Shown: positions 24,429-27,303 of the stretch, in pieces
Layout of the letters: every line of letters starts with the position of its first letter
Position numbering within the stretch: the stretch's first letter is position 1
NCBI GenBank assembly: GCA_048941285.1
Contig: JBHLNS010000013.1
Coordinates: 8,130-72,129 of the forward strand
Reading direction: 5' to 3'
From: Promethearchaeota archaeon
Lineage (GTDB): Archaea; Asgardarchaeota; Lokiarchaeia; Sigyniarchaeales; SOKP01
DNA: 64,000 nt
Program-made: the position numbers and the translations under genes
Notes under the pieces: generated by a model
What the model was told of the DNA's origin: nothing
Database searches by the model: none
The model's input: only the letters and a program-made list of their open reading frames with translations

Positions 24429-24815
24429 CTACTTTTTCAGTTGTTTAATTGAAGATAGAGATCTCCAAGCTTTCCAAAAAATTAACCACAATATAATAAA
24501 AATAAATAAGGATGTCGCAAATGTGTATCCCCCTATAAATATATCCCCTATAAACAAGAAGGGAATTCCAGCAATCGCAAACCCAAACAAATATCCATAC
24601 CCCCAATATCGATTTTTTAAACCAATAATAACGGTAGGTAATATAGTTGTAAAAATGATTGTTAAATATGACCAAATCTCCATAGACTCTAAAATTATCA
24701 ACATATTTATCCAAGATACAATGAACCCAACAATTATCCACATTATTGTCACAACATCAATCTTAAATTCTGGTTCAGGCCTTCCTACAGATTGATCTCC
24801 ACTTCTACTTGACAT
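24429..24815 (-). CDS. Small 4-TM membrane protein
   Basis: Four hydrophobic segments and a basic C-terminus. Confidence 0.75.
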   Translation of the reverse strand: MSSRSGDQSVGRPEPEFKIDVVTIMWIIVGFIVSWINMLIILESMEIWSYLTIIFTTILPTVIIGLKNRYWGYGYLFGFAIAGIPFLFIGDIFIGGYTFATSLFIFIILWLIFWKAWRSLSSIKQLKK

Positions 24816-25073
24816 AATTATGTAAAATTATTGTTTCCGCTACCAATATTAATTCTTTTTTTTAATTTTAATTCAATTTTAACTTAAAATTAATCTACAA
24901 ACTATAATGATTTAATTTATAAACTCTTAATGATATATTAAATTTAGGATAAAAATTTAAATTCAATCTATCAATAAAAAAACACAATTTAATTGAATTC
25001 TAAAACAATTTTAAATTTAAACAAAACAGAATAGGAAAAAAAATAATATAAGATTAACAAAAATCAAAAAAAA

Positions 25074-25193
25074 TGACTCCTGCCTACACCCTGGATTTTT
25101 GTCTTTTGGTAGTGTAAATTCTTACACTCTGATTTCGCCCTCCTCCCCCTATTTTGTTTTGACGCGTACTTGCGTCTCGTAGGGCAGGAGTCA
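25074..25193. ncRNA. Candidate structured ncRNA or cis-element of unknown family
   Basis: 57/120 G+C inside a very AT-rich intergenic region; 14-bp closing stem 25074-25087/25179-25193; two internal hairpins. Confidence 0.65.
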
Positions 25194-25569
25194 CCCTTAA
25201 TAGTTTCTAATCTCATATTTGACATCAAGCTACTAATCTTTTGAAAGTTATAAAATTTTAAATAATAATTAGCTGTGAGAAAAAACAGAATATTTAGAAA
25301 TATTTCAAGGCTTTACAAAAAAAATGAAAGAAAACTTCCCAAATCTAGTTCAAATCTGAAATTTAAAGCTATCGATTATAATTTCAATTTAAGAAGATTA
25401 AAATATAACACAAAATTTTCAATTTTATTAAGATTTTTAATCTTTTTTAATAATATCGTTAATACTATAGATATTATTAAAAGATTTAAATGATTTAAAT
25501 GTTTAATTAATAGAATAACTATTTATTAAAATACTATTTTAACCAAATTATAACAGAGTATAGATTCAT

Positions 25570-27303
25570 ATGACAGAGTTAGAAACTCAATCTGCTCAAA
25601 AAGGTAACATCGAAATTATTCGAACCACCACTAGCATATGCCCAGAATGTATGCACCATCTTCCTGCTGAAATTTATGTAGATCCCGAAACAAATTGGGT
25701 GATGATGCGAAAAACCTGTAAAGATCATGGAGAATTCAAAGATAAATTGTCTATTAATCCAGAGGATTATAAATGGCAACAAACCTTTACCAATGAGATT
25801 GGATCTACCATAAATAACTCTACAAAACCTGAATACGTATCCTCAGGAATTAAAGAATGCAGCCCTAAGGGATGCCCGTTTGATTGTGGTCTTTGTGAAA
25901 ATCATCAAAGTGCTCCGAACATCTGCTTAATCGATATTACTAATAGGTGCAATTTAGCATGTCCAATATGCTTTGCGAATGCCAGTGCAGCAGGTTACGT
26001 TGTTGAGCCAACCTTTGAAGAACTCGTTAGAATTATGGAACATTTTAGATCGATGGAACCTATTCCGGCTGTTTTATTACAACTTTCTGGAGGAGAGCCT
26101 ACTGTTAGAGATGATCTGCCTGAAATAATCCGAAAAGGTAAAGAATTAGGCTTCACTGAAGTGATGGTTACTACTAATGGGGTAAGATTTGGTAAATCAC
26201 CAGAATTTATGCAAAAATGCATGGATGCTGGGATGGACGCGATTTATCTGCAATTTGATGCTACTAATAACCCCGAAATATGGAAGAAGATTAGAGGAGT
26301 AAATTTATGGCCTCTTAAACAGCGAGTTATTGAAAATGCCCGTAAAATTGGATTTTATGGTATTATGTTAGTCCCAGTTATAGCAAAGGGAGTAAATGAT
26401 CATGAAATCGGGAAGATTCTGGATTATGCTCGAGATAATTGTGATGTGGTATCAGGTATAATCTTCCAACCAGTTTCTTTAACTGGACGTATCAGTTTTG
26501 AAGAATTAATGGATATTAGATACACTACTTCTGATTTAAAGGAAGCTATCAATGCTCATACAGGTGGGGCTGTGACTAAATTCTATCCGATAGCAACAAC
26601 AGCAAAAATGACGAAATTACTGGCTTGGTTTGATGATATGCCTCCATTTAGCATGACAAGCCATCAAGACTGTGGTTTTTGTACTATTTGCGTTGTAAAC
26701 GAGAAAGGAGGATGGGATCCTATTGAAAAATATTTTGATGCTGAAGGTTTAATTCGTTGGTCAAATAAAGTTTGGGATATGGTTGAAAAACAGGAGGTTC
26801 CAAAACCTACTGGGTTGTTAAAAGGGGTTGATTTAAATGATTTTGGTCAGATAATCTCCAAAATCGGAAATTTCGTAGATGACATGACCAGCTTAGGATA
26901 TCGCCAAGCTATAAAAGCTTACTATTTCGCAGGAGCAGCACGTTATATTAAACATCCAGAAAAAATCCTTACAAATAAAACTTATCAAGCCTTTGCTCGC
27001 TTGGTAATGGCCCCAAACCTGAAATCGGCAGGGGACTTTCTCCATAATCGCAATCTTATGATCAGTAGCATGCATTTCCAGGATAGTTATAACTTCGACC
27101 TTAACCGAGTATGTAACTGCCTTGTTCACTACGGAGTCATCGATCCAGAGGATTCTACAAAAGTCCGGGAGATTCCTTTCTGTAGTATGAACACATATCA
27201 TAGACCAATTATTGAGCGACAACTTGCGATTGCAGGAAAAACAGCAAAGAAACCAGAAGTTATCCAAGCAGAAATCGAAGAACTGTTAAAAACAGTTGAA
27301 TAG
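25570..27303 (+). CDS. tes: Tetraether lipid synthase (GDGT-MAS, MJ0619-type radical SAM)
   Basis: TTSICPEC..KTCKDHG, GCPFDCGLC, TNRCNLACPICFA, SGGEPT, HQDCG, MHFQDSYNFD..C..HY, IPFC. Confidence 0.88.
   Translation: MTELETQSAQKGNIEIIRTTTSICPECMHHLPAEIYVDPETNWVMMRKTCKDHGEFKDKLSINPEDYKWQQTFTNEIGSTINNSTKPEYVSSGIKECSPKGCPFDCGLCENHQSAPNICLIDITNRCNLACPICFANASAAGYVVEPTFEELVRIMEHFRSMEPIPAVLLQLSGGEPTVRDDLPEIIRKGKELGFTEVMVTTNGVRFGKSPEFMQKCMDAGMDAIYLQFDATNNPEIWKKIRGVNLWPLKQRVIENARKIGFYGIMLVPVIAKGVNDHEIGKILDYARDNCDVVSGIIFQPVSLTGRISFEELMDIRYTTSDLKEAINAHTGGAVTKFYPIATTAKMTKLLAWFDDMPPFSMTSHQDCGFCTICVVNEKGGWDPIEKYFDAEGLIRWSNKVWDMVEKQEVPKPTGLLKGVDLNDFGQIISKIGNFVDDMTSLGYRQAIKAYYFAGAARYIKHPEKILTNKTYQAFARLVMAPNLKSAGDFLHNRNLMISSMHFQDSYNFDLNRVCNCLVHYGVIDPEDSTKVREIPFCSMNTYHRPIIERQLAIAGKTAKKPEVIQAEIEELLKTVE

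Follow-up and report, generated by a model that had tools for sequence, protein, structure and literature searches.

We report that a 64,000-nt stretch of contig JBHLNS010000013.1 from Promethearchaeota archaeon (assembly GCA_048941285.1), hereafter called the window and used for all position numbers, carries a genuine and previously uncatalogued small RNA gene. The gene lies on the plus strand, has a conserved core at 25073-25198, and belongs to an RNA family confined to a single family of Loki-type Asgard archaea. A first-pass annotation had described a structured RNA at 25074..25193; its proposal of a novel Asgard small RNA is borne out here by the lack of an Rfam family, by the homologues, their distribution, and the co-variation of their base pairs. 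The strand, which that annotation had left open, is resolved as plus by the count of G.U versus A.C pairs and by a promoter-like motif upstream. To our knowledge, almost nothing is known about the noncoding RNAs of Asgard archaea, and a full-text literature search, judged from titles and abstracts, returned nothing on this RNA. New here are the promoter-like motif, a leader complementarity with co-variation, and contigs of the family from RNA libraries.

The structural features first described for the window are present in its sequence. The closing stem, which we call P1, pairs TGACTCCTGCCTAC (25074-25087) with GTAGGGCAGGAGTCA (25179-25193) over 14 bp and has one bulged G on its 3' strand in the window copy. 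It encloses the hairpins HP2 (AGTGTAA-attc-TTACACT, 25111-25128) and HP3 (GACGC-gtactt-GCGTC, 25161-25176), the U-rich tracts GAUUUUUG (25094-25101) and AUUUUG (25151-25156), and, between the two hairpins, the C-rich tract CGCCCTCCTCCCCC. A run of eight A residues, which reads as T8 on the minus strand, stands immediately 5' of the closing stem. The element is also a G+C island as described, with values of 0.33 to 0.43 compared to 0.12 to 0.22 in the flanking spacer. Its folding energy on the plus strand is -40.6 kcal/mol versus -23.0 +/- 3.1 for shuffled sequences (z, -5.60), and on the minus strand it is -39.3 kcal/mol (z, -5.21); on neither strand did any of 200 shuffles equal the native value. 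When 31 loci are aligned, conservation starts sharply at A-TGACTCC and stops at GGAGTCA-CCCTT(T), with AT-rich, unrelated flanks on both sides, and the same borders recur in an alignment of 84 members. The conserved unit, of about 126 nt, is thus slightly larger than the interval first described and includes the tail CCCTT at 25194-25198. In a position profile of 92 loci, most members end in CC(C)TTT(T), possibly a short oligo-U terminator, and the window copy has only TT.

The co-variation of paired positions across the family confirms this structure. An nhmmer search gave 137 matches in 150 collected loci, 104 of them full length and 93 of these distinct. Our working alignment, A1, comprises 84 of 94 distinct full-length sequences, those with large insertions or truncations having been left out (L028, L125, L123, L044, L072, L134, L129, L137, L130, and L075). 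From A1, RNAalifold predicted P1, HP2, HP3, and a small hairpin inside an invariant U-rich module, with 16 of 25 predicted pairs changing on both sides. In a structure extended by hand to 31 pairs, 92.2% of 2,524 cells can pair and 22 of the 31 pairs change on both sides. Column shuffles reached 84.5 +/- 0.4% (0 of 500 attained the observed value) and slid partners 31 to 47%, figures that are not to be read as probabilities, as the sequences in A1 are related and were mostly collected through one exact 19-mer. Both-side changes affect 11 of the 14 pairs of P1 (91.3% of cells pair), all 7 pairs of HP2 (90.3%), and 4 of the 5 pairs of HP3 (89.7%), in which GACGC/GCGTC alternates with GACCT/AGGTC and other combinations. 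The module-internal hairpin never varies in A1 and so carries no co-variation signal.

The distribution of the RNA follows the boundaries of a single archaeal family. In the window's own genome (3.55 Mb in 101 contigs, 94% complete) there are 2 copies, and the second, which is diverged, lies on another contig (C36); a covariance model of 131 positions and 30 pairs (R1) has exactly these two matches there, at 137.9 bits for the window copy and 107.7 bits for the C36 copy. A blastn comparison with 41 related genomes detected one to eight matches in every one of the 24 congeneric genomes, and matches in only 2 of 16 genomes of other genera of the order, one of these matching over only 20 bases. 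Across 151 genomes sampled from the phylum, R1 matched all 25 further genomes of the window's GTDB family, which represent 6 genera and carry 1 to 7 copies each. Outside that family only one of 125 genomes, drawn from 26 other families, gave a match, and a marginal one (E = 3.8e-4, 32 bits), under stricter large-set filters that may miss weak matches. The exact 19-mer CTGGATTTTTGTCTTTTGG occurs at at least 113 loci in a collection of species-representative genomes; among the matches listed, nearly all are metagenome-assembled genomes (MAGs) labelled Promethearchaeota/Promethearchaeia or "uncultured archaeon," with a few labelled Hermod-, Hod-, Thor-, or Odinarchaeota and three bearing bacterial labels.

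The RNA gene is also stable in its genomic position. Of 29 loci examined, 16 sit between the same two genes as the window copy, namely, a minus-strand gene for a membrane protein of 128 to 139 amino acids, some 250 nt upstream, and a long plus-strand open reading frame (ORF) that begins 310 to 500 nt downstream. A second class, formed by the C36 copy together with L031 and L029, is syntenic as well, and in both classes a minus-strand gene lies 218 to 258 nt beyond the RNA. At orthologous loci, the element retains 93 to 98% identity between flanks that have diverged.

The plus strand is identified by two features. In P1, HP2, and HP3, 102 cells hold G.U on the plus strand, compared to 32 with A.C, the pair that the minus strand would show as G.U, and 13 members have a U.G pair in the middle of P1. 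This asymmetry in the variable helices favors the plus strand by about three to one, and we therefore take that strand to be the RNA. The second feature is a motif, GATAAAAATTTAAA, containing a putative transcription factor B recognition element and TATA box (BRE/TATA), which lies at 24948-24961, about 125 nt upstream of the core, within a block conserved among 16 orthologous loci. Allowing up to two mismatches, it precedes the core by 65 to 150 nt on the plus strand in 33 of 86 loci, versus 6 on the minus strand upstream and 3 and 1 in the downstream controls. With up to one mismatch, the 14-mer has 69 sites in the genome, 27 of which are followed 20 to 200 nt downstream by the start of an ORF of at least 100 amino acids, compared to 14 in the opposite-direction control; because of this difference, it looks like a general promoter form of the organism. 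Given the usual archaeal distance from TATA box to start, transcription would begin at about 24980 to 24990. The 60 nt upstream of the core are A-rich in the plus sense across the family, and, the strand being plus, the T8 run that the first-pass annotation had likened to a minus-strand terminator turns out to be merely part of this common leader.

Members of the family are found in RNA libraries. Of 16 sequencing runs listed, 4 that are recorded as RNA contain part of the sequence; four metatranscriptome runs, from four studies, yielded contigs of 33 to 230 nt that match the conserved core at 85 to 100% identity, with summed word depths of up to 42 to 68, and that belong to relatives of the window organism, are silent on strand, ends, and level, and may reflect DNA carry-over. 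One contig of 159 nt has 48 nt upstream of the core. The others cover the core only and end where paralogues branch apart, and they are uninformative on whether the flanks are silent. Absence of transcription, which the first-pass annotation had named as an argument against an RNA gene, is hence not what the RNA libraries indicate, with the reservation just made about carry-over.

Known RNA classes do not account for the element. The comparison with Rfam that had been proposed gave no match to Rfam 15 at gathering thresholds anywhere in the 64-kb window, and a permissive run over 24800-25570 with E values up to 10 gave a single chance match, to NEAT1_2 (15.3 bits versus a cut-off of 60; E = 1.3). 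ARAGORN finds no tRNA or tmRNA gene in the window, in line with the earlier statement that the element is not a tRNA. C/D box small RNAs carry RUGAUGA and CUGA boxes next to a terminal stem; here there is no RUGAUGA, and the only CUGA (25130-25133) varies to CUAA, CUCA, or CUUA in other members, so the earlier exclusion of this class stands too. We also considered a cis-regulatory, riboswitch-like leader of the downstream gene and rejected it: the second syntenic class has both neighbors on the opposite strand, other copies adjoin unrelated genes, and the start codon in the window is at a distance of 375 nt.

The part of the RNA that has changed least is a U-rich module, CTGGATTTTTGTCTTTTGG (25091-25109), of which UCUUUUGG makes up one half and which includes the heptad AUUUUUG. 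Within A1 its invariance exists by construction, the collection being based on the 19-mer. Across the genus-wide blastn set, however, the module is unchanged except in fragments, and among members found through the model and not through the 19-mer, it is exact in 16 of 21, the five exceptions differing by one to a few bases. Loci that match the model over the module only are more distant relatives with an unchanged layout (P1, then the module, HP2, the pyrimidine strand, P1', and a CC-UUU tail); their P1, HP2, and HP3 sequences are wholly different, and some lack HP3 or have extra hairpins. That about 20 bases stay fixed while everything around them changes points to a sequence-specific partner. 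A search for a complement of the module that tolerates G.U pairs gave three sites in the genome, the antisense of the two copies and one unrelated site, and an RNA target of the module was rejected on this ground; since a long complementary target is missing from the genome, a long RNA partner is unlikely and a protein is the more likely candidate.

Which protein this might be is suggested by the heptad. A-U5-G is the classical Sm heptad, and sites of the Sm class have the consensus form RAU(3-6)GR. The segment GAUUUUUGU at 25094-25102, retained across the family, has this form and stands single stranded between two helices, P1 and HP2, and binding of a SmAP/LSm protein to the AUUUUUG module is plausible from these letters. 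A weak alternative hairpin, CCUGGA/UUUUGG, could occlude the site. The first-pass annotation had listed two Sm-like U tracts; the first indeed falls within the near-invariant module, and the second, at 25151-25156, lies in a variable segment that pairs with the leader. We also looked for an LSM paralogue specific to the RNA-bearing family and dropped this idea: there are 3 to 4 LSM-domain genes per genome in the GTDB family versus mostly 2 to 3 elsewhere, and an extra type with a long insert occurs in another family as well.

In contrast to the module, the single strand between HP2 and HP3 (CTGATTTCGCCCTCCTCCCCCTATTTTGTTTT, 25129-25160), unpaired in the consensus fold, differs by paralogue class. 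It is pyrimidine-rich and G-poor throughout and reads CUGAUUUCGCCCUCCUCCCCCUAUUUUGUUUU in the window; the C36 copy differs there and is less C-rich, and the C-rich tract singled out by the first-pass annotation is therefore not a feature shared across paralogues. The 3' part of the strand (CCCUAUUUUNUUU, 25147-25160) has a counterpart outside the core. In many loci, a plus-strand motif, AAAyAAAAUAGG(G), occurs 15 to 71 nt before the core and is the reverse complement of this segment; in the window, the leader segment is CAAAACAGAATAGGA at 25022-25036, and the two partners form a proposed helix, PL, with an RNAduplex energy of -14.8 kcal/mol. Of 86 loci, 24 have AATAGG within 60 nt upstream of the core, compared to 1.7 expected. 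Ungapped complementarity with a score of at least 18 links the strand to the upstream region in 35 of 80 loci, versus 1 of 80 for the downstream region and 1 to 2 of 80 for sense controls. Internal and leader variants match one another (UUUUG/CAAAA, UUUUA/UAAAA, UUGUA/UACAA, and UAUAUUA/UAAUAUA). Among 16 distinct well-paired combinations, position 5 is UA in 10, CG in 5, and UG in 1, and positions -8 to +3 contain four G.U pairs and no A.C; when the leaders of these 16 were permuted, the observed pairing was reached in 4 of 2,000 trials. Standing downstream of the promoter-like motif and upstream of the core, the leader motif would be transcribed. Together with P1, PL would form a pseudoknot or else represent an alternative or masked state of a precursor.

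Taken as a whole, these features lead us to a model in which the gene encodes the RNA of a trans-acting ribonucleoprotein (RNP), with a handle for a protein (possibly an Sm-like ring), a pyrimidine strand for targeting that is specific to each paralogue, and, in many copies, a self-complementary leader. In this model, the gene would be transcribed from the plus strand through its own promoter-like motif about 125 nt upstream, and the mature body of about 126 nt would be clamped by the 14-bp terminal helix P1 so that two functional surfaces are exposed. One surface would be the near-invariant module of 19 to 21 nt, CC-CUGGAUUUUUGUCUUUUGG-U, between P1 and HP2, serving as a dock for a conserved protein; the likeliest candidate, on the strength of the AUUUUUG heptad, would be an Sm-like (SmAP/LSm) ring. 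The other would be the variable pyrimidine strand, which might pair with purine-rich RNA targets, each paralogue having targets of its own. In many copies, CCCUAUUUUNUUU would pair with the RNA's own 5' leader, giving a pseudoknot or a precursor that stays masked until the leader is removed.

We put the probability of this model at roughly 0.4, as a number of observations weigh against it. The limits of the RNA-library contigs given above belong here, and the window-copy tail with its two T residues is a poor terminator, while the minus strand has T8 right after P1. Upstream of the tRNA genes, GATA[AG]WWW occurs at 36 to 43 nt in 3 of 13 cases against a background of 0.118, which is not significant. 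The complement of the C-rich 15-mer has no other site in the genome with up to two mismatches. PL is not universal, and among the window copy's 16 orthologous loci only 4 retain it; the duplex energy of a locus with its own leader beats that with the leaders of other loci in only 45 of 80 cases; and under wobble-tolerant scoring, the extended leader duplex has 54 A.C and 10 G.U cells, a point for the minus strand, although we attribute this excess to the A-rich leader standing opposite a C-rich tract. Finally, the four LSM-domain matches in the genome fail to discriminate, given the similar numbers in families that lack the RNA.

Several other explanations share part of this evidence. The RNA could be a subunit of a nonregulatory particle, a scaffold or chaperone resembling Y RNA or vault RNA and having no mRNA targets. 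RNAs of that kind have paired ends and bind proteins through a pyrimidine-rich loop and U-rich sites, and the element's long bulged terminal helix, pyrimidine-rich internal strand, short U tail, and size of about 100 to 130 nt would suit such a role, as would the protein contact suggested by the near-invariant module and the lack of a convincing base-pairing target in the genome. We nonetheless consider it unlikely: the 94%-complete genome has no match to TROVE/Ro60 (PF05731), a search whose control was positive in 2 of 14 genomes, Rfam gave no Y_RNA or vault match up to an E value of 10, and an internal strand that varies between paralogues is better suited to targeting than to a fixed protein site. 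A search for the vault domain (PF01505) gave no match and is uninformative, its control having been positive in 0 of 14 genomes. Quite unlikely, in our view, is that the upstream complement is no RNA helix at all and serves instead as a promoter element (TATA-like AAATAAAATA and then GGG) or as a DNA site bound by the RNA itself, in self-targeting or autoregulation; the mature RNA would then start at the A of AUGACUCC. The motif does sit 15 to 27 nt before the core in many loci, where the TATA box for a start at the core would be expected, the CC|A preceding the core resembles an initiator, and many orthologues dispense with the motif. Yet base-for-base co-variation with an internal segment, seen here across paralogues, would not arise with a generic promoter element, the motif lies anywhere from 15 to 71 nt before the core, and a separate conserved promoter-like motif stands farther upstream; as a general promoter element the leader motif was rejected, being present in none of the 13 tRNA upstream regions.

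Two further readings would take the element out of the class of plus-strand RNAs altogether. The first-pass annotation had itself raised a miniature inverted-repeat transposable element (MITE) with many copies and target-site duplications. Such a mobile, nonautonomous element would have P1 as its terminal inverted repeats and the upstream complement as a relic of guide-directed insertion, and it is a reading to which we give very little weight. Copy numbers of one to eight, copies 3 to 5 kb apart in the same orientation in some genomes (L168, 5149-10038; L172, 5029-7932; L173, 4961-8426), a copy next to an ORF that looks transposase-like by eye (L035), and the decay of the leader complement in some orthologues, as a relic would decay, are all compatible with it, as are several copies at contig ends (e.g., G014:C146:1-108 and G012:C80:1-121), which is the expected placement for any multicopy sequence. 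Target-site duplications, however, are not apparent at the borders, and this argues that the element is not a MITE: repeats of at least 4 nt flank 41 of 86 loci (48%) compared to 41% for mismatched flanks, with no excess at any length. The genome has only two copies, two classes are stably syntenic across the genus, with 16 of 29 loci sharing the window's neighbors, and co-varying internal hairpins with strand-asymmetric G.U pairs are not produced by DNA repeats. The 18 proteins encoded in and around the three loci with paired copies (among them radical SAM, SIR2-TPR, LRR, PAS, and NosD proteins and unknowns) contain no integrase or transposase domain, a weak point as Pfam covers Asgard mobile-element genes poorly. 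Equally improbable is that the minus strand is the functional one, acting as a cis leader or attenuator of the gene for the 128-amino-acid membrane protein to the left, with the T8 run after P1 as terminator and a downstream segment resembling CCCUAUUUU as the alternative partner. The minus strand folds almost as well as the plus strand, a minus-strand gene follows in both syntenic classes, and the A.C excess of the tolerant duplex count points the same way. On the other side stand the threefold G.U asymmetry of the variable helices, the U.G pair in the middle of P1 that would become an A.C mismatch in 13 members, the four G.U and zero A.C pairs in the core of the leader helix (-8 to +3), the proposed module pairing CCUGGA/UUUUGG, which exists on the plus strand only, the orientation of the promoter-like motif, and the fact that the neighboring genes differ between paralogues.

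The model of a trans-acting RNP RNA invites comparison with known systems. With RNAs that carry Sm sites (the U1, U2, U4, and U5 small nuclear RNAs [snRNAs] and the small RNAs associated with archaeal SmAP or bacterial Hfq) the element shares a single-stranded A-U5-G heptad between helices, small size, a structured body combined with an unpaired base-pairing strand, and a genome that encodes LSM-domain proteins. Unlike them, it matches no Rfam snRNA or small RNA family, its conserved module of about 20 nt is far longer than an Sm site, and it is confined to one archaeal family, so that no line of descent to snRNAs is indicated. Y RNAs and bacterial YrlA, the partners of Ro60 and Rsr, have their ends paired in a bulged stem, a pyrimidine-rich internal strand, and a short U tail, all of which the window RNA, of similar length (about 100 to 130 nt), could be said to share, but its genome lacks a TROVE gene, no rsr-like gene is nearby, a tRNA-like domain is missing, and Rfam does not connect them. 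RsaE/RoxS small RNAs of Firmicutes act through C-rich loops that pair with G-rich ribosome-binding sites, which the unpaired C/U-rich tracts here could also do; those RNAs belong to another domain of life and have another architecture, the C-rich tract here is not in all paralogues, and no target was found in the window's genome. MITEs resemble the element in length (about 120 bp), inverted termini, and several dispersed copies and differ from it in the points given above, i.e., target-site duplications, synteny, co-variation of the internal hairpins, and strand asymmetry of G.U pairs.

An RNA that is universal in the sampled genomes of one Lokiarchaeial family, with clear co-variation and an Sm heptad of textbook appearance within a near-invariant module of about 20 nt, raises the question of SmAP binding, which bears on whether RNA recognition in the style of small nuclear RNPs (snRNPs) exists in the closest prokaryotic relatives of eukaryotes. 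A stronger version of our model can be formulated, in which the AUUUUUG module is a genuine Sm site on which SmAP assembles as a homo-heptameric ring between two helices, as the Sm core does on snRNAs, and the outcome is a prokaryotic Sm-class RNP that is guided by the pyrimidine strand and masked by its leader until processing. We regard this version as a long shot. If it were true, the lineage nearest to eukaryotes would have an archaeal counterpart of the snRNP architecture; the restriction of the RNA to one family limits what can be claimed about eukaryote origins. Independently of this, the small RNA may be one that its own leader masks, and the covariance model can be used to annotate genomes of this lineage.

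The surroundings of the gene offer some additional observations. In the window, the downstream gene (25570..27303, plus strand) encodes a protein of 577 amino acids with Radical_SAM and Zn_ribbon_HMPTM domains, and the upstream 128-amino-acid protein has no Pfam match. Directly upstream of the radical-SAM gene, an AT-rich block at 25424-25560 that contains the inverted repeat AAGATT...AATCTT is far better conserved across the 16 orthologous loci than the remaining spacer; from its position and conservation, it may be that gene's promoter, 5' untranslated region, or a regulatory site. A minus-strand ORF of 54 codons with a TTG start overlaps the RNA at 25064-25228, and we read it as spurious because insertions and deletions within the family are not multiples of three. 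ARAGORN reports only 13 tRNA genes in the 3.55-Mb genome, which suggests that many tRNA genes contain introns, are otherwise atypical, or are unassembled.

Sequences outside the family's usual range are of two kinds. Family-like RNAs occur on contigs from MAGs labelled Saccharibacteria (L086) and Patescibacteria (L113), and these contigs are probably of Asgard origin and were binned in error. The 19-mer alone, probably a chance match, is present in a contig labelled Clostridia (L059) and in three from IMG/VR (L151, L152, and L154), and carriage by viruses was rejected, as only one of the four IMG/VR contigs with the 19-mer, L153, contains a family-like RNA (40.7 bits). Within the family, some members are modular in construction (L028, L123, L090, L191, and L192; L044, L130, L134, L186, and L190; L115, L127, L175, L178, and L179). 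They have an extra hairpin in the C-rich tract, have an extra hairpin after HP2, or have lost HP3, and the U-rich module and P1 are retained in all of these variants.

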